A stretch of DNA of 64,000 bases from Hydrolagus affinis (Eukaryota): contig JAAILG010001558.1 of NCBI GenBank assembly GCA_012026655.1, positions 1 to 64,000 on the forward strand. Reading direction: 5' to 3'. Positions 3,460 to 59,278 of the stretch are shown here, one piece after another; position 1 is the stretch's first letter; every line of letters begins with the position of its first letter. A program made the translations under genes and the position numbers. The notes below the pieces were generated by a model. The model was not told the DNA's origin, searched no databases, and was given only the letters and a program-made list of their open reading frames with translations.

Positions 3460-3685
3460 CTTTGTGTAAGGTGACCTCCATAATAATTCTATCATTGGGA
3501 CGTGTCGCCTTTAGAAGGGAGGGAGTGTTATCCAATTCAGAGCTGGAGTAGCTTCCCCTGCTCACGTAACTGTGGGAACTCAGGGACCAGGAACGGCTCA
3601 CGTGTGCTGTTGAGTGACTGTGGGTGAGGCTGGGGCTTCTTAGACATGTCCTGACTGTCAGTGTGAGTACACCTTTCTTTATTTG
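3460..3685 (-). CDS. IL16: IL16 exon (QIKKGVLTLTVRT...RIIMEVTLHK)
   Basis: CAG| and |GTAATT; 226 nt, phase 0 to 1; end of first PDZ, linker and start of second PDZ. Confidence 0.94.
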
Positions 3686-3772: not shown

Positions 3773-3846
3773 CTTAAATGTTTGTATGGCCTCGTCATGG
3801 GTCAAATCAATCATGGTAACTCCATTCACCTCAAGTATTTCATCCC
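3773..3846 (-). CDS. IL16: IL16 exon (GDEILEVNGVTMIDLTHDEAIQTFK)
   Basis: CAG| and |GTAAG; 74 nt, phase 1 to 0; GDEILEVNG PDZ motif. Confidence 0.96.
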
Positions 3847-4304
3847 CTGCACAGTGAAAGATCAATACTTTGAAGACAATATTATATGTGATAATATTAG
3901 AAATCTATAGCCAATTTTTTTTCCTTCAGTGTAAAATCTGCTTGTTTCAACTACAATTTACTACAGTTGATGATGGCAATCGTCTTTTGATAGAAGACCT
4001 GCAGGAGCAGATCCCTTTCTATACCAGATTTTCCATTTATTTTTCTTCTTGTGTGGCTTTATTGAGTCAATTGCCAAATTAATCATACAGAAAGCCTTTC
4101 TCTTTTCCATTGCAACCCGGAACCAAGGAACTTGATTCAGAGTCCACTCCGAGACACTACCCCATGTGAAGGGGGCTATATAAATGCAAGCTATTGTTGT
4201 TCAAACTATTGTAACTTGGAAGGACCCCCTTGATAACAGTGTTGATGATTAAAGAAAGATACAGCCTCAGTTATTCGCAGAGCTGGAGTAGAGCTGGAAG
4301 ATAC

Positions 4305-4419
4305 CTTCTCGGAGCCTGCCATCAGCAGCTGCTGTTCCATTGGGGTAAATTGTCTTCACAAAGATTCCCATTGGTCCGTAAACACTGTCTCTTCCTCCTA
4401 CCACACTGAAGCCAAGCCC
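4305..4419 (-). CDS. IL16: IL16 exon, first PDZ GLGF loop ([38 protein letters not shown])
   Basis: CAG| and |GTATC; 115 nt, phase 0 to 1; GLGF carboxylate-binding loop. Confidence 0.96.
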
Positions 4420-4631
4420 CTGCAGGTATAAGAGCTGTTAGACTTTTGAAAATCAACTCAGATCGTAACCATCACATAGCAATGTTTCCTTGCACCATTT
4501 TGCCTCTGAGATCACCTGTGCATCTAATGCCAGAGGCTGGAATCTATTTAATTAGCAGCTCTAAAATTATGGCATTTGTTTTAACTTTTTTTTAACGTAT
4601 TTACTTAGATTATTAATTATGAAAGGCTTAC

Positions 4632-4742
4632 CTTGCCTTGACCTTTCATCAAAACAATGTTTGAAATGACTGATGGCTGAGCATTGCCGCTCGAATGGAT
4701 TAAATGAGCTGAACTTAAAGACCAAGCAGCTCGTGTGACATT
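4632..4742 (-). CDS. IL16: IL16 exon (NVTRAAWSLSSAHLIHSSGNAQPSVISNIVLMKGQGK)
   Basis: CAG| and |GTAAG; 111 nt, phase 0 to 0; SVISNIVLMKGQ shared with human. Confidence 0.95.
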
Positions 4743-5719
4743 CTGTGGGAAATCACATGGGTAACATTTTTTACAAGTACAAGAGAGTCCCGTAACCCTT
4801 AGAAACCAGCCGACTTGAAACCATTTGGGTGAAATTTGTGGCATTTTGTTCCATGTTCTGTGGGATAATTATCAAAGGAAATACATTTGAAACATTCGCA
4901 CCCATTCTTCACTGCATTGAGTTAGTGGTCAAAGGAAACTCACTGTTTTTGTGCAAATAAGGTACTTTATTCTGTAGTGAGGTGGCCCTAGTAAGCAGAT
5001 ACCGCTAACTAGTCGTAACTAACTGTAACCTGACCTGCATCTCCAAGGTTCCAATGAGGAAGCCAGTGACAGATGCAATAGGCTCTATCATATCAGGTCT
5101 GTCTTTCCAATTCATATGGAGGGAGAAATAGATCAGCGGTATCTATAATTGAAGCATTATTTGCTTTTGTTTTCCTCTGCAGTAAGTGGAGGTTAATACT
5201 TTACATCCAAAGTCCTCCCGATGTGAATAATACTATCTAAATGTAAATTAGATTGTAAAAGGAGTAAAATTGCAATCTATTTAAGAAATATTGCTAAAAT
5301 GTGTTGATACTTTATGGCCACTCTCTATGTGGATGTAGCTGGTTGAACTCCGGCGGTACCTCCAACTCACACTCTGGGATCCCCAAGCCAAACTTCACCT
5401 TATATTTCTCTCATCATAACAAAGGCCTCTCTTACCCTTTGTCCGCCCACTCCGTTCTAAGAAGCAGGCTGCTCAATATGGCATCCTAGCACTCTGGAAG
5501 CTAACCAGCACAAAGGACGCTATATAAACACAAGATTCAATGGGATCCTTACAGTGTAAGGCATAACTATTGATATAGTTGGCCGCACACGAAGGCTACA
5601 AAATGAAAAGAAAATATGGGAGACATATGGAGTAAGATCTGAATTAACGCAGGTCCTTCTATGACATTTCTTCCCTGTGTTCCCTTCCATTTCCTGAATG
5701 TATGTAGACAACAGCTTAC

Positions 5720-5862
5720 ATGTGCACCTCCTGTAGATTCCAGCTGTTGAGATAGGGACTTCCTGTTGCCGCAAAGTGAATGGGTTTGAGTATTCCTACA
5801 GAGAGCTTGTTTCGTGGCAACCAGAGAATCAACATCTTTCTCCATCCAGAATGAGCTTACAC
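5720..5862 (-). CDS. IL16: IL16 exon (GVSSFW...SLCGNRKSLSQQLESTGGAH)
   Basis: CAG| and |GTAAGC; 143 nt, phase 1 to 0; SLCxNRKSLSQQL motif. Confidence 0.93.
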
Positions 5863-6452
5863 CTGCCAAAAACACACACAAGTTTGAGGAACAGAAGTGG
5901 CCGGGTCAGAGAAGGTGGCCTGTTATTAATAGCACATTGAGATTATGGGAAATGCAGAACATATTTGGGTGATGACTACAGATTTAAAATCAAGAAATGA
6001 ATTGTCGGCATCCTGAGTTTCATGTTATGAGAATAACCATGAGAGCAAAGTCGGGTGAACGGAGTTGAGGTACAGATCAGCCATGATTGAACAGAATGGC
6101 GGAACAGGCTTGAGGGGAATGAATAACAAAGAAATTGCCACTTAGTCTTGGTAAAGCTCCGAAAGAAACAGACGTCGCTGAAATATTCCAGCTCTCTGAC
6201 TCTGCCACTAAAACGTAGGTTAAATGTTCACGAGCACTGAGGGAAGCAATGAACAAGCAAAGAAACGAAGGACTTTAGGCGCTCAGTGTAAGTAGTGGGA
6301 GGTGTTTGTAGCTCCTTGGATTCCAGTCACAGTCAGTGGTTCATGTCATCCATTGTTCAAGGAACAATGTCACCAACAACTGTTTCAAGTTGACATTTGC
6401 CTTCAATTTTCTCCTCCCTTCTCTCCTCCCACTGATTCATCCTGCAATTTAC

Positions 6453-6564
6453 CTGTTGAATTACACCGAACCCTTTGACCAGAAGCACCAGTCTGCGGGC
6501 AGCGAACTTTAAAATGCTTTCCTTTTTCAAACCTAGGTTCACCATCATCTTCTGTATTGTCCTC
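6453..6564 (-). CDS. IL16: IL16 exon (EDNTEDDGEPRFEKGKHFKVRCPQTGASGQRVRCNST)
   Basis: TAG| and |GTAAAT; 112 nt, phase 0 to 1; QRVRCNST resembles human QRARSNST. Confidence 0.85.
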
Positions 6565-6965
6565 CTACAGAAAACAAAACCCAGATGTTTAACAACTGTT
6601 CAGTTAATCCTGATGTTACTATGCAAATCTTAGACACATACTATTGCATGGCTTTGTTTTTACTAACTCACTTCAGTTTGGTGAACTCCACCTTTATAAA
6701 GTTACAAAAGCTATCGTTGTTGATATTGTACGAGCACATTTCATTAGAAATGTTTGAATTTAAAAATGTGATGTTTAACAGATTTTAATCACATCAAAAT
6801 GTGTTGAGAAGTGTCACAGTTTTTCTTCTCTTGGAATTTTTTGATGCAATATTATTATTTTGTTTTATCGATAAATACACATTTTTTAATTTTATAAAGC
6901 CTTGTAAAATGATTTGAGAGTAAAAGTTACACAAGGATAGAAAACTCTGATCGACACGTAATAAC

Positions 6966-7090
6966 CTTAGTGTAGCTGTTTGCAATGATATCTTTAGTAA
7001 GCCGTGTCTCCGAACTTTCATCGTCGTCACCAGCAGGGGGCACATTGGCTGAACCAGCGCATTTATCCAGCAGCTTACACTCCCAGGGTC
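6966..7090 (-). CDS. IL16: Possible additional IL16 exon (xPWECKLLDKCAGSANVPPAGDDDESSETRLTKDIIANSYTK)
   Basis: Good acceptor TTTTACAG|, donor AAG|GTTAT; open in phase 1 to 0 and more GC-rich than flanks; requires an upstream phase 0 to 1 partner exon. Confidence 0.5.
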
Positions 7091-8380
7091 CTGTAAAATG
7101 CTAAAGTAAAGCAAAAATTACACTTCTAACTGAGGGAAAGCGATAAAGATTGTAATCAATACCCAGCTGGTTAAAAGCTGAGGAACAAGCATTTCCCGGC
7201 TCTATATCTGGCACATTATTAAAGTGTGTCCAGTACTCTGTAAACTTAGCAATACTAATGCATTGTTTTATGTTTTACTGCTGGGATATATCGCAGGTCT
7301 TGAGTTTCTGTTGTACAGTCTCCTTGTAAATGTTTTGCTGAGGCACCATGGATTTCTTCAGATAACCTACATTCTACTTACTTGGTACCTGCAAGACAAG
7401 TACTGCAGGGAAGATTGATCACTGTACATGGGGAGGCTGGAAACTGCACAGTCATTTCAGATATGGACATCGTTAAAGAAAATGCTTTGTGTTTGTCTGA
7501 ACTTTCCATTAAACATGTGTTTTGATCCTTTTTTTGTAGCATAAAGTCTCACCATCAATCAAAACGGTATAATGGCTATCATGTGTTGTATTGTACTCTA
7601 CCAAAACATTTAAAATATAACTTTTAATGTAATTTTTTATAAATATACTATGCTATGTTCATTTTATGGGCTATAGTGTATTATCAAAATACAGATAGAA
7701 GCAACACCCATCCACAAAATAGGCCATAAAATAAGTGACAAAAGACACACTTCCTATTGCAAAGGTGTGAATTCATTGTGATTGCGGTAACAATGACTAC
7801 TTTGCAGCAACTCCATTAATTGCCACAGAATCATCGAAGCTTACAGCACAGAAGAAGACCATTTGGCCCATCATGTCAGTGCTGGCTATTTTAAAGAGCA
7901 ATCCTGTCGACATGCATTCTCTTTTACTTTAATAATAAAACTATAACTTTTATTTTGTTTTGTCACATAGGCCAACAAATTAGGTCAATCCAGGTCTGAT
8001 TTCCTGTAACCGATGGAACATATCTTTACAGTCCCAAGACCACGTGTGAGAACAGTATTTTAACATAAACATTTTACCACATTTTTGGCCACAGAAAGTA
8101 AAACTCCAAAGAAATAACTCTTTCATTGGATACATCTCTCCCACTGCAGTGGTGAGCTTTATTATGGTGGGAATATTCACCCCCACAGCCTGACCTCATT
8201 CCCTGACTACCTCCCATGGTAACTTGAATAAGAGTGCTGCATCCGGCCTGATGTAACACTTCTCTTGGCTGAGCCAGAGTGGAACAGGCAAGGATTTATC
8301 TTAAAGGCTTGACTCCTTTTTTTAAAACTTAAGCATAATTCTTAAATGAAAACTAGAAACGTGATTTTTTCTAAAAAAAA

Positions 8381-8669
8381 TAATCCTTGCATTTGATATA
8401 GCGCTTTTCACGTCTTCTAGACATCTCAAAGCGCTTCACAGAATATACTGTATAGTGAATTGATTGTATAATTGTGGGCGAAACGTGGCAGCAAATTGCG
8501 TATAGCAGTGTCCCACAAACAGTCGTGGATTAAAATGATCAATTTATTATTTTTTTTTGTTGGAAGGATTATTTTTAGGCATGTGGAGTAAGGAAACATG
8601 CCAAGGTTTCACCCTGCCTGGATTCGAAACACAAGTCTCATACTTGTAACCACTGAGCTACAGGACTCC
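8381..8669 (-). mobile_element. tRNA-derived SINE, same family
   Basis: Reverse complement of family consensus, ending ...GAGCTACAGGACTCC. Confidence 0.88.
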
Positions 8670-9364
8670 AATGGAGAATGGAGCCTTTCGGCAGAAGTAT
8701 CCAACAGAGATTTCAGTTTGCTTTTTGAAATTAATCAGTGTATATTTAATAACTTTGTTTGTAACTTGATAGGTTTTCACTAAGCTGAAATAGTACAAAA
8801 TTTTAATAAATTCAGGCAGGTTAGTTTTAGCACCAGTAAAAGCTCTGGGCGGCACTCAAAAAAAAGGTGACCATTGCCCCACAAAATAATTGCTGCTTAA
8901 CACTAGCTGCAACTTGAGGGTGTGGCACTCATAATTTGCAGAAATGATGGACGGTGCCAAAAGCTGCACGTATCTCACCCCACAGCCGCGCTCAAAGACA
9001 GAAACCCATGAATCCGTGTAGTGGAGGCAGAGAGGGTTAAACAAAAATATCCCTTGTCATAAGGAAAAAAAAAATTCTATACGCATTCAGAAAGCTGAAC
9101 AAAATAAGTAAGGGGTGAAAATGTAATGTAATGCTTTGTTGAACAAAAGCCCAATAAGTTTCATTTGGTGGCTGGTCCACGGGTTTGCCCTCACTCACCA
9201 CTCCAACACAATTGTTCACAATAGTTCAGCTTGAACCAACTACGCTGGCCATTGGACATTTTATATTTTATTTTTGAAGGGATTATTACCCATGCAAAGC
9301 AATCCGCCAATCGTCTAACAACTGGGTTCCTAATTACTGCTAGGTAAACAGAGGAGCGTTTGAC

Positions 9365-9883
9365 TTGCTCTGCTTTCCCTCACATCTGCAACATTGCCCA
9401 ACTCCCCCACAATCTCGTCCCTCATGACACTGAAACTCTCATTCATGCCTTCATCACATCCAGGCTCGACTACGCCTTGCTTGTCAGCCTTCCCAACTCC
9501 TCCCTCCATAGGCTGCAGATCATCCGTTCTGCGGCCCTTGTCCTCTGCCAACCCAAGCTCCATTACCCCATCTCCCCCATTCTCACCTGACTCCATTTGA
9601 TCCCGATCACCCAGAGGATTCAATTCAAGACCCTGGTCCTCACCTGCAAAGCCCTCCATGGCCTTGCCCCACCCTACCTCTGTGACCTCCTAACCCCTAC
9701 TAACCCTCCTTCAAGTCCCGCCTCAAAAATTTCCTCTTGAATAGTCCTATCAATCACCCCAAATATCCTCCTTTCCCTCCACCCTCCCTGATTCTACTTG
9801 GGTCTGAAACATTGACTGTCCAGCACCTTGGGACATCCTCGCTATGTGCAAGGCGCTATATAAATGTAATTTTGTTGTTGTTG
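9365..9883 (+). mobile_element. L2-clade LINE 3' fragment
   Basis: ETLIHAFITSRLDY...LHRLQ...PISPIL RT C-terminal motif; tail GGCGCTATATAAATGTAATTTTG(TTG)n. Confidence 0.85.
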
Positions 9884-9885
9884 AA

Positions 9886-10009
9886 TGTGAAGTAAGGAAA
9901 CTTTACTCAATATTTTGTGATATGCCCATCATTTCACCCTGCCCGGGATTCGAGCCAGTGTCCTCTTGCTTGCGAGGCAAGTGATCTAACCAAAACACTG
10001 CAGGACTCC
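9886..10009 (-). mobile_element. tRNA-SINE 5' half
   Basis: GGATTCGAGCC reverse B box; ends CAGGACTCC. Confidence 0.7.
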
Positions 10010-10973
10010 ACAAATAAGTTATTCTAAAGTGTTCCTTTCCATCCAAATCTGTTGAAAGTTTTTTTTTCTCTGAATCTGGAGAGCTAGAAGAAAATGTTCA
10101 ATCTTTCCCTTCTCCCCCATCCCCTGCCCTCCTGATTTTACTCTGACCCCTGCAGACATCTGCTATTTATTAGGGCAGCACCATGCAGCAACAAATCAGC
10201 CACTGATCTAGGAAGTGAAAGCTTTCCTGTACATTGTAATCAGGCGGACTATATTTAGATTTTACATACCGTGCCTACATATTGTCAGTTAGTAATTTGT
10301 CTGCAACATCTTTGACGGATCAGACCTAAGGTTCTTGTGTAACATTGAATGTCTCCAGTGTGACACACCAAGAATTCCGTCTAGCTCTCAGCATCAGCAA
10401 TGCCAAAACATAGTCATCACATTGAAATAAATTAAAGCATTGACTGTCCGGGGCCTTGGGACGTCCTCCTGACGTGAATGTATAAATGTAATGTTGTTGT
10501 TGTTGGCGAGTGTGGAGTAAGGAACTCAACGTTTTGTGATATGCCTGAGGGATGAGGTAGTGGCGGAATCGGGCAATGTTGCAGAGGGAGGGAAGGCAGA
10601 GCGGGGCAAACAATTCTGCAGAGATTTATAGTTGCAGTTATCGCTGACCATCTATAGAAGCACAGAATTTGGGAATAAAAGTACAGTAATAAGAAAGCCT
10701 GCTGAAATTGTTCTTGTAAATAAAATGCTATTCATTAAAGCAAGATGCATCGGCTGGACACATAACTTATATTTATCTTTTTTACTGGTTGTTATATGTG
10801 CGGGGTAGTGGGGGGGGAATTGCAACAGGAAATGGTTGTTCACCCAATAAACCATCATTTTTATTGGTATCAATCCTGGCTCCCTGTAGTAAGTTGTCAG
10901 CTGGACTGGTTACAATTGGCATTCAATCATGTTGCATTATCACAAAATGATTGAATGAGTTTGTGGAACTTAC

Positions 10974-11097
10974 ATTGCAAGAAGCGTTCAGATTCACAAA
11001 GCCTTTTGTTGACTGGATCAGAAGATCATTCTCTTTCAGCAAATATTCAGTAAATGACTGTCCTTGTAGATTGTGTCCAGGCTTCAGTTGTCTGTCC
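10974..11097 (-). CDS. IL16: IL16 exon, degenerate PDZ C-half (DRQLKPGHNLQGQSFTEYLLKENDLLIQSTKGFVNLNASCN)
   Basis: TAG| (weak pyrimidine tract) and |GTAAGT; 124 nt, phase 2 to 0; aligns by eye to PDZ C-half pattern DGRLxxGDEL..NG..L..LSH.EA...L.S..G.V.L.V. Confidence 0.7.
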
Positions 11098-11170
11098 CTA
11101 TTCGAAACAATTTTTTTTTTTCAATCTAGTGCTTTATTTGACAAAGAGAAGTTTATTAACAATCAATTGT

Positions 11171-11468
11171 GGAGTCCTGTAGCTCAGTGGTTAGAGCACT
11201 CGTCTTACAAGTGAGAGACCTGAGTTCGATTCCAGGCAGGGCGAATTGGGCAAGTTTCCTTACTCCATACGCCTGATAATAATCCCTTAAAGAATACCAA
11301 TAGTAAATTGGTCATTTCAATCCACAATTGTTTGTGAGACATGGCTGTGCGCAATTGGCTGCCGCATTTCACCCACAATATATACAGTCAATTCACTTTA
11401 CAATAGATTCTGTGAAGCGCTTCTGTGAAGACATGAAAAGAGCTATATCAAATGCAAGGATTATTATT
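11171..11468 (+). mobile_element. tRNA-derived SINE, near full length
   Basis: A box TAGCTCAGTGG, B box GTTCGATTCC, shared body (GGGCAAGTTTCCTTACTCC...GCAATTGGCTGCCGC), L2-like tail ending (ATT)n. Confidence 0.9.
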
Positions 11469-11770
11469 CTTGATAACTCTCCAGTAAGATTTCTGTATTT
11501 TTGTATTTGTATTCTGTTTTTGCCTATAAGTACACGCTCACTTGCACTGCATAATGAAAATCCGGTGAAGCATTTTGAAATGTTATGATGACATGATACG
11601 TAAGGTACAATGTCAAATGCAAGCATTATTATTATTTGTTCTGCATCATTTTTTAACAAGGGGGAAAAAATTGATATTCAGCAGCTTACACTAATATTTA
11701 TGAGTAAATGGCACCTTACACCTGCCATTGTCACTTCTAAATTTATCCTTATAGTTGTGTCTTGGTTTGA

Positions 11771-12074
11771 GGAATCCTGTGGCTCAGTGGTTACAGCTCT
11801 CGCCTTGTAGGTGAGTGACCTGCATTCAATTCCCGTTAGGGTGAAACCTTGGGCGGGTTTCTTTACTTCACACGTCTGATAATAATCCATCCAGAAAAAA
11901 AAACAGTTTCACTTCAATCCACGACTGTTTGTGAGACACTACTGTGTGCAATTGGCTGCCGCATTTAGCCCACAAATAAACAGTCAATTCACTTAACAGT
12001 GTAGTTTGTAAAGCCCTTTGAGACATCTAGAAGATGTAAAAAGCACTATATCAAATGCCATTATTATTATTATT
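11771..12074 (+). mobile_element. tRNA-derived SINE, same family
   Basis: Same head, body and tail as 11171-11468. Confidence 0.88.
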
Positions 12075-12592
12075 AAAATGAATTTTTAAATTATAAAATT
12101 ATAATTGGTTTACCTACAGATCGGTTCATTTCAAATATCATAACATTTTGCAATTGAAAAAAATTGCCTGCATACCAATTTAATCACTGCTTATTTTAAT
12201 TATTTTTGGACTGACAATATTTCCAGCTTTCAAAGTACATGCAACATTTTGTAAGGCATTTTGTATAATATTTGTACTGTGCAATTTGTATTGTATTTGT
12301 ATATTTAAATTATTTAAATTCTCAATAATTCTGGAATATATATCCAACCTGATCTCTTATTGCAATGTTGAGGTGGGTTTATTGGTCTGGAGTATGGATG
12401 TCTCAATAAGTATTTTTGATATGAAGAGGCCCAAAACCGTTACAAACTTCTAAACACATGCAAACAATGAGGTAGCTTGAACTACAGAATTTTAGCGCGC
12501 AGAAAAAATTACTGCACTGGTGATGAATTGAGTTCACCGTGTGGCTGGGAAACCTCATAGTGCTGATGCTCTGTACACAATAGGCAAGCTAC

Positions 12593-12708
12593 CTGTCTGC
12601 TGTTCTTCCACTGTTTCCAGAGGATCCATTGCCATCGGTGACCAGCTGAACTCCGAGTTCTTTGCCTCCTGTAGCCACATCCAACCTCGCACAGTTCACT
12701 GCAGATTC
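12593..12708 (-). CDS. IL16: IL16 exon, degenerate PDZ N-half (ESAVNCARLDVATGGKELGVQLVTDGNGSSGNSGRTADR)
   Basis: TAG| and AG|GTAGC; 116 nt, phase 0 to 2; ELGVQL resembles GLGIQV and GRTADR resembles GGAAHR. Confidence 0.7.
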
Positions 12709-13364
12709 CTACCAATGAAATACAGTATAGCAAATCCAGTTTAGTCTCTGGTGGGACAGGTGAGATTTTCCCCATTGTTGATGGGATGTTGCAGAAAATA
12801 AATACAGGCACTTACATAATTTAGAACCAAAGCATTGAAATTTATTTTACACAAGCATTTATTTATTCATGTTGCACCTGCCTACAGTATAAAAGAGTTG
12901 GGTTTCACAGTGTCAGGGCATTCTAGAAATGGTTGTGAATATCCTATATTGATTTATTGAGACATCATTACATTTGGCAAAGCTCAAATAACAAGCCTCC
13001 TTGTGTGAGCAGCATGTATGATGCGCTTTTGTTTTGTTTTCCTTTAACATATAATAGGAAATAGGAAATATTACAATAAAAATGTCATTTCAGTGTTACA
13101 TTTCCGGATACATTTTCGCTGTTATGATCACACAGGAACATTATCATGGATTACAGGAACGATTTACAGGAGGAGAAGGCATATCTGATCCTGACATGAG
13201 CCAAATTACAGTATATTGTTACACAAGTCTACAAACGCAATTGGGTAATGTAATAACTGGTTAATGTAACCATAGCCCGGCAAGCCCAGCATTGTGTGGT
13301 CTCAAAACCAGTTCCAAAAACCTCAGTACCACATCATCACATTCATTCTAAATTAATAATAATG

Positions 13365-13533
13365 TGATCACTCAATCCACGACTGTTTGTGGGTCATTGC
13401 TGTGTACAATTGGCTGTTATGTTTCGCCCACAAAACACACAGTCACTGCACTTTACGATGTATCCTGTGAAGCACTTTGAGACGTCTCAAAGACGTGATA
13501 AGACATTATGTCAAACGCAAGGATTATTATTAT
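13365..13533 (+). mobile_element. SINE 3' half
   Basis: CAATCCACGACTGTTTGTGG...GCAAGGATTATTATT. Confidence 0.75.
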
Positions 13534-14565
13534 AAATGCCCACTATTCATTTATGAAGTGAGGCAGCAAGTGTTGTTGCTGAAATAAAATACCCCAGGCA
13601 ATTCTTATCAAGCGATTCTTCATGTGTGAGTCTTGTTAGTGTGTTATGCCAGTCAATTTAAACAGGGATATATGAAATACTTTCTAACTACTGTTACTTG
13701 ATCAGGAAGCCTGTCTAATTTTTTTCCACCTTCCAAGTCCAGGAACGCTAACGCTAGTGTTTTTTTTATTACCTTGTGGCCCACAAAACAAGCTCTTCAC
13801 AAATCACGGATTTGAGTTGGATCCCTCCTGATCTGTGTGTGACTCAATACTTGGCTGGGTGCTGCAGTCATCCACACACCACTCAGGGAATCTCTTGACT
13901 GAAATCCCAATAAACAGTGTTCTCTTAGAAAGATAGGAATGGCATCAAGCAATGTGACACAAAATCTAATTTCTAGCTGGCAGTGGCAATAACAGTCTAC
14001 AGTGGATGTGAACAAAGCTTTGTTTTACTGGAAGAAATTAGTTCCATAAAATCATTCTAAAATATGTCCAAAGTTGCGTCACACAAATAGAAAGCCTAAT
14101 GGCAAAACAATGAAGCTCACTGTAATTTTGTTTGGCGAATGCACAAAGTAAAACATACTGCATAACATACATTGAGTTGTTTGTTGTGGGAGTCAAGTAT
14201 CAACTGATTTCTGTTCGAACATACGGTGACCCCCCTTTGTAATGCTCGCTACTGATTTGCTAACATAGATCAGGCAATGCAATAATGATCTACAAATGTT
14301 GTTGTTTGCATTAGAGGTACCAGTAATGGATTTGTACCAATTCATTGCTCAATCCCATCATCTCCAGAGAACGTAACTTAATGCAACCAACAAACAGGGC
14401 ACTCAAAGTTTGCCTCATATTTGGATCCCTATAAAGTTTTATTCTCAATTCAGTATATTTGCAATGGTTACATGCTGCTGATAAGATTTCCCAGCTTCTG
14501 CATTGACAATGTACTATTTCTAAGCGGTTGTACACTGTACAATTTAAAAGGCAAAAAGGAGTTAC

Positions 14566-14883
14566 CTTAAAAGAACATTCGTGTCTGATTTCCTTTTCAG
14601 CTTCATCATTTGCACTCTGTTTCAGTACACTGGGAATCCTGGGAACCATGAAATTAGAAATCTTATGTTGGGCTTGTGACACACAAGTTGGGTGTGACTT
14701 GGGGTCATTTGTGGTCAATTCAGAGGCACATTGGGTCAAGACAGGCACGGAGGCGCGATACTTCTCTTCTGCGTTACTTCCATCATCGGGATTCTTTGAA
14801 TTGCAAAGCAAAAATGTCCTGGAAATAACCCCAAACTTCCTTGATTTCTTGTTACTTTTACCTGAATTGCATTTGCGACCCAT
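14566..14883 (-). CDS. IL16: IL16 first coding exon (MGRKCNSGKSNKKSRKFGVISRTFLLCNSKNPDDGSNAEEKY...ECSFK)
   Basis: Resembles human [41 protein letters not shown]; donor AAG|GTAAC; acceptor at about 15005; alternative in-frame ATG at 14937. Confidence 0.9.
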
Positions 14884-17800
14884 TTGAGAACAAGATGTGT
14901 CCCTTTTTTTCTTTTTGTTGCTACAAGAGTAAAGCATCTTGGTTGAGTCCTTCACTACTCCACCCTCTTGAGCCTGACAGCTTCTTCCATGCAATTACTC
15001 CCAATCTGCAGATAACAACAAATTGTATACATATAGCACCTTTCATGTAGGAGGATGTCCCAAGGCACTAGCTAAATATTATAAATAATATATGTATATA
15101 AATGATGTATATATGTTATGCATATTATATGTTAATAACTATTGGGCCTGATAATCTTCTTCACCTTTCTCTTTGGTCCCTCTTGGTCTGATAGCCTTTA
15201 CTTTGTTCTGTTGCTGTAATGTGCCTTTGTACTATTGTACTACGTTTGTACTGTAGAAATTGATGACTTCATTTTAAATTGAATGAAAAGATCGAAATAT
15301 CCATATCAGTCAAAATAAAAAGGTTGTGTATTTTCACTCCATAACGGATGTTAAATTACAGGGATTTCAAAGGAGATTTACGTTTTTTTGAAGTTCAGTT
15401 ATCGCATCATTATTGCAGCTGGACCTCTGATGTATGTTTGACCCATTTAAACTGCTAATGATAAACAATAATACATGAGAAATAAATAATAATCATTGGA
15501 TCCGATAATGTGTATATAAAAGATGAATTTGATTGGGCAGTGTATCATGCACGTATATTGTTGAATGCTGAAAGATTAGCAGTCAAAAACAGGAATTTCT
15601 GCAATTTCTGAAATGCTGAACAGTTTAGATACTGTATGATATACTGTAGTGTATCTAAGCACTGAATGTTTCCACGTGGGAGGCATTGAAAGCTTCCAAG
15701 AACTGATGGCAGACAGGGTTAATATCCTGAGTTGATACATGTCAACTCACAGCATGTTTCTTTGGGTTTCATTCAGTATAAGAGTTCTTGGAATATCTTA
15801 CCCAACGCATTCTACCTTGAAGCAGATTTGATTAATCGTTTTAAAAAAATGCCTTGTCCCTTTGATGGACAATATTCACATCAGAAAATACAAATGCTCA
15901 GCTTTTACCCTATTGGCTATAACTAGCTCTGAGATGAGAAGTAATGACATTACGTATTGTCTTACAAATGTGTGTGTTAAAGATAATTGTTCTGCAGGAT
16001 CGCATTAGAGCCTGTCAGTAGATATCTGATACAGAGATCAAAATGGAGACTATCTGGCTGATGCAGCAGGATAGGGTGAAGTTGCCTAATTTCAAGAAAT
16101 GTACAAAATTTATATGTTCTATATATGTGTGCATTTTGAAATTGCCCATATTGAAATTGGGCAATTTTTGTGTACTTAAATAGGACAAATTTCATGTACT
16201 GACCAACAGATCAGCAAATCACAAGATAAAAATGATCAAACTACAATCTTCAGAAAGACGTTGGAGCAGTTGTTATTTTTTTTTTTTTTAATCCTTGGAT
16301 TTGATATGGCGTCTTGTCATATTGTCAAAAACATCTCAAATACAGGATTTTCTTTTACTGTGAGAGCAGTGGTGAAAACCTGTGGTTCACAGGCTGGAAT
16401 AAAGAAAGCTTCTGAATATTCACATGAGTTTATGTAAGTCCATATTCGATCAGTAATGTGTGTTCAGTTTTTTTCTTCTTTAAATATTTCTTGATTTATG
16501 GCGTATTCAATCCAAAACATTTATTTTGTTGGCCGGCCATAATAGTTGGCCACCACTGCTGTAGTCACTGTGTATTTTGTAGGTGTTCGTGGGTGTCAGA
16601 TTGATGTATGTTTGGTATCTAACAGAATTCAATGATTATGAATCCTTTAAAAATCCCATTATGAATGCTGCCTTTCTGACCACAATATTGATTTCAGGTT
16701 AGAAAAATCTAGAGCATGCCAATGTAAATAAAGAGTGGATTGAATAATAAGGAGGCAATGATATTGGAGTATTGCAGATACTCCATAGTGGAGCAAAGTT
16801 GGTGAGGAGAGGATGGACATTATGAATTCTTTAAAATAATTAACAGTTGATGAGATTAATGTAAGCGACTTCTTAATTTGCACTCTGGGACACCAAATAA
16901 ATTTAAGTTGTTAATTTGGACATTCACAGCAGAACTGGAGGGCATTAGTGGATGGCATTTCAAATATCTTCTCCACAAAAGCGTCTCTTTCACAATAGCA
17001 AAAAGGATACCTGCTGACTGAAATGAACAAATACTGGAGCAGACATAATGATTTCTGTGCTGCTGAGGACAGGTAGTTGTTTCTGATCAAAAACTGAGAA
17101 CATACTAATTATACGAGCAAATTTTTCAGCGGTATAAGAACTAACCAGTATTACAAACCTTATCTATGCCAGAAGTCAATGTATTCTGTGAAGCGGTTTG
17201 AAACATCTTGAAGACTTGATGAGGCACTATAACAAATGCAAGGATTATTATTATTATTTTTATATAAGTCGAAGAGCAGTTTTACGTTTCCTCAACTCTG
17301 CTGATGGAATTGCTAATTTACTGTTGAACTGTTTCTTTTTCTATGATATATGCAGAACTAGTGGAGACTTGGCAGATGTAGAAAGCTTGGTGACTAATGC
17401 TATGGAGTGTGCCCAGCATAGTATTGTATAAACATGCTGTACTGTTTTCCATATAAAGTATATCAATAAGTTTGTTCAGTGTCAATCTTCTCACTAGTTT
17501 TATAAACTTATAAACAATTTGTGCTCAGGTTGGCTACAAAATTGTTGCAACTTGTGATATAAGAACATTCTCGAATACGCCAATAAATTCAGAAAAAAAT
17601 TACATGGTAGATTATTCCTAATCTAATGCTTTTTTACTGTATACTTTCCATTACGACTCTTTGAAATGCACAAAATGATTCATTCAATTAATTTGCAACT
17701 CAACCCAAAGATACACACAGATACATTATATTTTAAGTCATTAAAACACGATTTAACATCTGAATTAAAGTGAATACAATGACTTACGGAAGTTCAAAGA

Positions 17801-58087: not shown

Positions 58088-59278
<1,191 letters not shown>

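Follow-up and report, generated by a model that had tools for sequence, protein, structure and literature searches.

Does pro-IL-16 of the chimaera Hydrolagus affinis carry a PDZ domain ahead of its conserved PDZ pair and, if so, in what state? The window analysed here, 64,000 nucleotides of contig JAAILG010001558.1, holds part of IL16 on its minus strand, and an earlier note, made from the letters of this DNA, had proposed that two small exons of the gene encode a decayed PDZ domain. According to the accessible text of PMC7138185 and PMC8326423, the PDZ domains of mammalian long IL-16 number four, and the extra N-terminal ones bind neuronal ion channels, as stated in the accessible part of PMC12171437. 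The PDZ domain at the N-terminus of long pro-IL-16 is called PDZ0 here.

The IL16 gene chain in the window

Spliced together, fourteen minus-strand exons between 14937 and 262 give a stop-free chain of 792 codons. The possibility that the whole gene is a pseudogene was rejected on this count and on the 94-95% identity of PDZ1 and PDZ2 to those of Callorhinchus. The first coding exon (14566-14937, ending in phase 0) is 84% identical to Callorhinchus pro-IL-16 and 38-54% identical to three shark proteins, which marks the window as holocephalan; the exon's in-frame ATG at 14937 precedes a second ATG at 14883, and the shark models match from the upstream Met. Exons A (12593-12708, 116 nt, phase 0-2) and B (10974-11097, 124 nt, phase 2-0) follow. 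When the sequence was re-read, the coordinates, phases and translations first proposed for them were confirmed; they lie on the minus strand and have AG acceptors and GT donors. Both lie in frame inside the chain, as the earlier note had it, but its exon order lacked exon C (6966-7100, phase 0-0, AG/GT, open frame), a 45-codon linker after PDZ0 that sits between exon B and 6564. Exon C stands between the two and has a counterpart in the Callorhinchus milii model A0A4W3GT16 (P0130; 34 of 45 residues identical), so the predicted junction 10974>6564 gives way to the expected 10974>7100 and 6966>6564. Exon C has a weak donor, is without a six-residue stretch that Callorhinchus has, and is omitted along with A and B in ray models.

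Further downstream, still on the minus strand, exon D (6453-6564) encodes a linker ending in an RxNST motif, and exons E (5720-5862) and F (4632-4742) a conserved linker before PDZ1. PDZ1 itself is intact (exons G, 4305-4419, and H, 3773-3846), with 59 of 63 residues identical to Callorhinchus and 58 of 63 to Heptranchias. The block I-K comprises a linker and an intact PDZ2 (I, 3460-3685; J, 2759-2876; K, 2089-2221), J and K together matching Callorhinchus at 80 of 84 residues. Exons L (1370-1457) and M (262-770) begin the long middle region, after which the gene runs off the contig. IL16-like 3' exons were seen on contig C17917 of the same genome; contig C11501 has a weaker IL16-like set, possibly PDZD2, and C196357 a short 73% match. 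Elsewhere in the window, a single long open frame on the minus strand (58088-59200) matches Talin_IBS2B (E 2.7e-8) and is likely TLNRD1/MESDC1, a neighbour of IL16 in human; this would fit conserved synteny.

Exons A and B match IL16 PDZ0

Pfam and PDB sequence searches with exon A or exon B singly gave no match, the pieces being short and divergent, and dedicated profiles were therefore built. The PDZ0 profile was made from 10 intact copies. With shark PDZ0 as the query, a sequence search was flooded with multi-PDZ proteins unrelated to IL16; their one use here was to build a generic PDZ profile. Against the PDZ0 profile, the spliced A+B peptide scored 45.4 bits (E 3.5e-16), the best of 1000 shuffles reaching 9.2. 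Among ten class profiles it scored 45.2 bits with IL16 PDZ0, 9.0 with PDZD2 PDZ2 and below 5 with the remaining eight. When the window was cut into 2872 six-frame pieces, exons A and B took the top two places with this profile (E 1.2e-6 and 3.2e-4), ahead of the exons of the intact PDZ1 and PDZ2. The two halves of shark PDZ0, aligned to the window by tblastn, landed exactly on exons A and B at 40-45% identity. Between 7101 and 14565 there are 465 open AG..GT candidates, of which the best 14 all overlap exons A or B; the boundaries proposed for exon B, 10974-11097, rank first. The acceptors are weak. The scores against shuffles and the ranking among the 465 candidates led us to reject chance exons. 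A genome search found no second copy of exon B, so that a duplicate copy was likewise discarded as an explanation.

In a tree of 73 rows built on 97 columns, a short alignment for that number of rows, the peptide pairs with its Callorhinchus counterpart (100/100), next with shark PDZ0 (100/97) and next with all IL16 PDZ0 domains (100/100). Pfam finds five PDZ stretches in the proteins of three sharks and the coelacanth, and four in two Callorhinchus models, P0130 included. By its site between exon 1 and the linker preceding PDZ1, its best profile and its place in the tree, the product of exons A and B is, at the level of sequence, an in-frame degenerate orthologue of IL16 PDZ0.

The earlier note had likened the segment to PDZD2 PDZ2, and this holds as paralogy: IL16 PDZ0 falls into one group with PDZD2 PDZ2 and a single domain of amphioxus (100/98), and the PDZD2 PDZ2 exons of the same genome have 0-2-0 introns at codons matching those of exons A and B. 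The direct likeness is marginal (9.0 bits against the PDZD2 PDZ2 profile, maximum of 500 shuffles 7.5; 14.1 bits for the Callorhinchus remnant), and the link runs through intact PDZ0. With the PDZ0 profile, PDZD2 PDZ2 domains score 85-105 bits, while the other intact PDZs scanned from IL16, PDZD2 and multi-PDZ proteins reach at most 56. The best match of shark PDZ0 in the Hydrolagus genome is an intact two-exon PDZ on contig C22400, identical at 85 of 91 residues to a named Rhinoraja PDZD2. Its exons (piece coordinates 817-956 and 4920-5052) are 84-85/91 identical to ray, axolotl and opossum PDZD2. Other PDZD2 domains score low on the generic profile, the first PDZ (P0260-P0296, residues ~120-165) at 12-20 bits and a middle one (residues ~1100-1250) at 20-43 bits; the family thus has further eroded PDZs, and IL16 models are without a match to either.

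The domain has degenerated without loss of frame

The spliced remnant scores 2.8 bits against the generic PDZ profile, compared with 59.5-75.1 for the 10 intact PDZ0 domains, and keeps 15 of the 29 columns invariant among them. Exon A encodes the first two strands and the binding loop, with a six-residue deletion near 12615; exon B has a three-residue deletion near 11066, and its helix B and last strand are altered. Mapped on an AlphaFold model of shark PDZ0, the first deletion covers the strand at residues 28-34, which removes the third strand and bears out the shortened beta-C region noted before; the second falls inside the strand at 51-55, the fourth. The GD and residues of the last strand are changed as well. 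The central proposal, a degenerate yet in-frame ancestral N-terminal PDZ, is upheld.

Two of the marks on which that proposal drew fail as signs of decay. The change from GLG to ELG is no lesion, as intact shark PDZ0 already has (D/E)LG, and the helix-B His said to be lost, at the start of that helix, is found in 0 of 10 intact PDZ0 domains; with both states occurring in intact domains, we rejected them. The loop of the remnant, ELGV (sharks have (D/E)LGI), fits the X-phi-G-phi carboxylate-binding motif, which permits any first residue according to the accessible text of PMC7138185.

The shark PDZ0 control was modelled by AlphaFold with pLDDT 88 and pTM 0.76, and resembles PDB PDZ structures with TM scores of 0.80-0.89 among the matches listed. 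The fold of the remnant was examined on the Callorhinchus peptide as a stand-in for that of the window, without the first eight residues of exon A. It gave pLDDT 49 and pTM 0.22, with one long helix and no sheet, from a shallow alignment of 11 rows that included the 10 intact homologues; two of five control models exceeded pLDDT 70. ESM features place the remnant near PDZ clusters (0.87, to be taken as a lead only), and its Atlas neighbours are all PDZ. Measured against the canonical PDZ domain (PF00595), the remnant shows no profile match, incomplete core strands and, on the Callorhinchus stand-in, no predicted sandwich with two helices. It is predicted not to fold and, by the tests run, is likely not a working PDZ.

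PDZ0 across vertebrates

The vertebrate survey covered protein models, in which absence does not amount to proven genomic loss. Fifteen of 121 IL16 models were uncut at first; 14 were rescored, and that of Hypomesus, which was mis-cut, was excluded. The models of Mustelus, one Latimeria and one Prochilodus start after PDZ0 and are uninformative, and the set was without turtles, crocodiles, snakes, marsupial IL16, human and chicken.

PDZ0 is intact in 4/4 informative sharks, coelacanth, sturgeon, paddlefish, bowfin, a caecilian and two skinks. It is eroded in 36 of 43 bird models (10-37 bits with the generic profile), gar, eel and tarpon, and collapsed in the two holocephalans, lungfish, platypus (33 bits with the PDZ0 profile), bichirs (short start only) and most otophysan teleosts. 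The models of all five rays, all six frogs, axolotl, bat, hedgehog and trout are without it. PDZ0 is also missing from six bird models; the five of these inspected omit precisely A and B, with a junction that coincides with that of bat. In ray models exon 1 is followed by exon D. The absence of the segment from bat and hedgehog agrees with the earlier statement that the human long form lacks it. An extra N-terminal PDZ had also been suggested for chicken: birds do carry a remnant, but chicken itself is not in the lists. Counted on the standard vertebrate tree, these models suggest about nine independent decays or losses, in holocephalans, batoids, bichirs, gar, teleosts, lungfish, frogs plus salamanders, birds and mammals.

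Timing and rate of the collapse

Both deletions are common to the window and to Callorhinchus P0130, where they are also in frame. At the 14 invariant positions lost in the window, Callorhinchus has the same residue at 12 and a different change at one, and one loss is confined to the window; Callorhinchus has two losses of its own. Rates were estimated on a fixed 10-species tree with 100 bootstrap replicates each, the holocephalan stem being compared with the crown, that is, the path between the two holocephalans. PDZ0 accumulated 0.59 changes per site on the stem and 0.22 in the crown, against 0.21 and 0.23 for the pooled linkers and 0.07 and 0.06 for PDZ1 plus PDZ2. The stem/crown ratio of PDZ0 is 2.7 (95% 1.4-4.8) and exceeds that of the linkers in 99% of bootstrap pairs. 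Exons C and D also have a long stem branch (0.76 changes per site), so that the burst may extend beyond PDZ0 or be due in part to alignment error.

The accessible text of PMC12952989 places the split of Chimaera and Callorhinchus at ~187 million years ago and that of holocephalans and elasmobranchs at ~400. The younger date holds only if the window lies outside Callorhinchidae, as its 71-85% linker identity suggests. The earlier description of a domain caught in decay cannot stand, since 13 of the 14 lost invariant positions are also lost in Callorhinchus and fast change lies on the stem branch. Because Callorhinchus has the same lesions and the stem evolved fast, the collapse is, on this sequence comparison, old, dating to the holocephalan stem (~400-187 million years ago), and the remnant now evolves at the linker rate.

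We read exons A and B as an in-frame remnant of PDZ0, a paralogue of PDZD2 PDZ2, that is predicted not to fold and likely survives as a passive spacer, and put the probability of this reading at roughly 70%. The better conservation of exon B than of linker exon M counts against a purely passive spacer. It is the starting point of a rival reading, in which the collapsed remnant, mainly exon B, was co-opted for some new function other than that of a PDZ, for instance that of a short helix or a linear motif, and came under its own purifying selection. Exon B alone drops from 0.84 changes per site on the stem to 0.13 in the crown, and 36 of its 41 residues are identical between the holocephalans, compared with 121 of 170 in exon M (Fisher p 0.03, with no correction for the four tests made) and with 71-76% in exons C, D and M. 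The DNA run X1, ~2% different from the window, likewise shows no difference in exon B, whereas three substitutions and a deletion of 8 nt are listed for the intron beside it. On the other side, zero changes in 124 nt are expected fairly often at ~2% divergence, exon A is at 71%, the remnant as a whole (58/72) does not differ from C+D+M (p 0.17), and its crown rate matches that of the pooled linkers. Splice-signal constraint beside a weak acceptor could also explain the conservation of exon B. We regard co-option as unlikely. Two intronic deletions were listed in X1, 8 nt at 10802 and 11 nt at 4279.

Reads over exon B

The RNA is from a single sample, sequenced in three runs, whose organism code on file differs from that of the genome DNA. 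In run X4, four reads align to 10770-11124, all at least 99% alike and two of them only partly aligned; their depth extends only from 10974 to ~11091, with none in the introns, and their strand fits a minus-strand transcript. Judging from the depth bins, they are two identical pairs, probably from one molecule, leaving ~15 letters unaligned at the donor of exon B (10974). This fragment supports splicing at the exon B donor, and the reads do not name the partner exon. The other two runs of the sample, X2 and X3, had no reads aligned to exon B and give no test. No exon junctions were listed for the four runs on 4250-15100, where the alignment was swamped by intronic repeats. High-copy short repeats lie in the IL16 introns at 8232-8593, 9318-10041, 10404-10765, 11128-12213 and 13300-13661; two of the intronic repeats flank the approach to exon B, and the repeats are very deep in the DNA and RNA runs.

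These reads bear on a second rival, that A and B are dying cassette exons, mostly skipped, with a main long transcript joining exon 1 to C or D and an open frame owed partly to luck. The phases permit skipping, the acceptors are weak, and models of five birds and of rays, as described above, show the segment left out. A Callorhinchus model without the segment (P0001) would point the same way, but it also lacks exon D and reads through the intron before exon E, and as a poor model it was rejected as evidence of skipping. Around residues ~100-116 this UniRef sequence skips A-D and matches the translation of the window intron, probably a gene-model error. Against dying exons stand the frame, open in both holocephalans, the two deletions in multiples of three, and the sole RNA seen on exon B, which looks spliced; we consider this reading quite improbable. 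Of the skippable cassette first proposed, then, the permissive phases and the skip annotated in bird models remain, whereas the RNA here amounts to a single fragment whose clipped end falls at the donor of exon B, with no junction listed.

Hardly credible is a third rival, in which the remnant would remain a folded PDZ, shrunken or domain-swapped, that is able to bind peptides: its loop motif (in the accessible text of PMC7138185), 15 retained invariant columns and PDZ neighbours in the Atlas would favour it, but the third strand is deleted, the fourth shortened, the GD and last-strand residues changed, and AlphaFold gives the Callorhinchus remnant no sheet despite 10 intact homologues in the alignment.

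Discussion

The passive-spacer reading implies the following course. PDZ0 would have been passed on in the duplication from which IL16 and PDZD2 arose; PDZD2 would have retained its copy nearly unchanged, and in IL16 PDZ0 would have become dispensable many times. Once its binding role was dispensable on the holocephalan stem, substitutions and frame-keeping deletions could have accumulated. With A and B presumably still part of the long transcript, upstream of PDZ1-PDZ2, stops and frameshifts would be purged; frameshifts would destroy this conserved pair, and so the remnant would persist as a spacer, now changing as fast as the linkers of IL16 do. Both A+B and C are phase-symmetric, so that relaxation elsewhere may have led to skipping (bird isoform models) or loss (ray, frog, salamander and therian models).

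A wider and rather unlikely account would have a folded PDZ pass through an in-frame remnant to skipping or loss in at least nine lineages, its PDZD2 twin frozen throughout, with the holocephalan remnant, exon B above all, re-stabilised for a new non-PDZ role for ~187 million years.

The existence of PDZ0 is itself probably known already, given a CDD model presumably named for chicken IL-16 PDZ0. The holocephalan segment is already contained, unannotated, in a UniRef Callorhinchus model. Our literature searches, in which subscription journals were largely uncovered and supplements not included, found nothing joining PDZ0 and IL-16 and nothing on shark or chimaera IL-16 domains or PDZ0 evolution. 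That literature appears to hold no description of the collapse in holocephalans, of its timing or of the repeated losses. From the comparison, ancestral long pro-IL-16 would have had five PDZ domains, inherited from a PDZD2-like gene, and mammals would have retained four of them. Within one gene there is also a graded series (intact, eroded, collapsed in frame, skipped, absent), with the conserved PDZD2 paralogue as control, in which the loss of a domain from a multi-domain scaffold can be studied. The holocephalan case shows that a domain invisible to Pfam can stay in frame for very long. No known pathway is altered by these results, and domain degeneration is in itself nothing new.

Among known systems, mammalian long pro-IL-16 (neuronal IL-16) has the same downstream PDZ1-PDZ4 layout; the bat and hedgehog models are without PDZ0, and that of platypus has it in degenerate form. 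Shark and coelacanth PDZ0 (Heptranchias P0002, Latimeria P0133) share with the remnant the gene, the site after exon 1 and the two-exon split, and 35 of 80 residues are identical to Heptranchias. Unlike these intact domains, the remnant has two in-frame core-strand deletions, has lost 14 of 29 invariant columns and is invisible to PDZ profiles. Callorhinchus P0130, which begins within exon A and has no PDZ annotation there, carries the same degenerate segment and deletions followed by exon C, with 58 of 72 residues identical; in the remnant of the window, the RDG motif has a further change from G to R. PDZD2 PDZ2, which with the matching PDZ of the amphioxus pro-orthologue forms the sister group of PDZ0 and has the same intron phases as PDZ0, differs from the IL16 remnant in being intact and slow and in keeping both GLG and the helix-B His.
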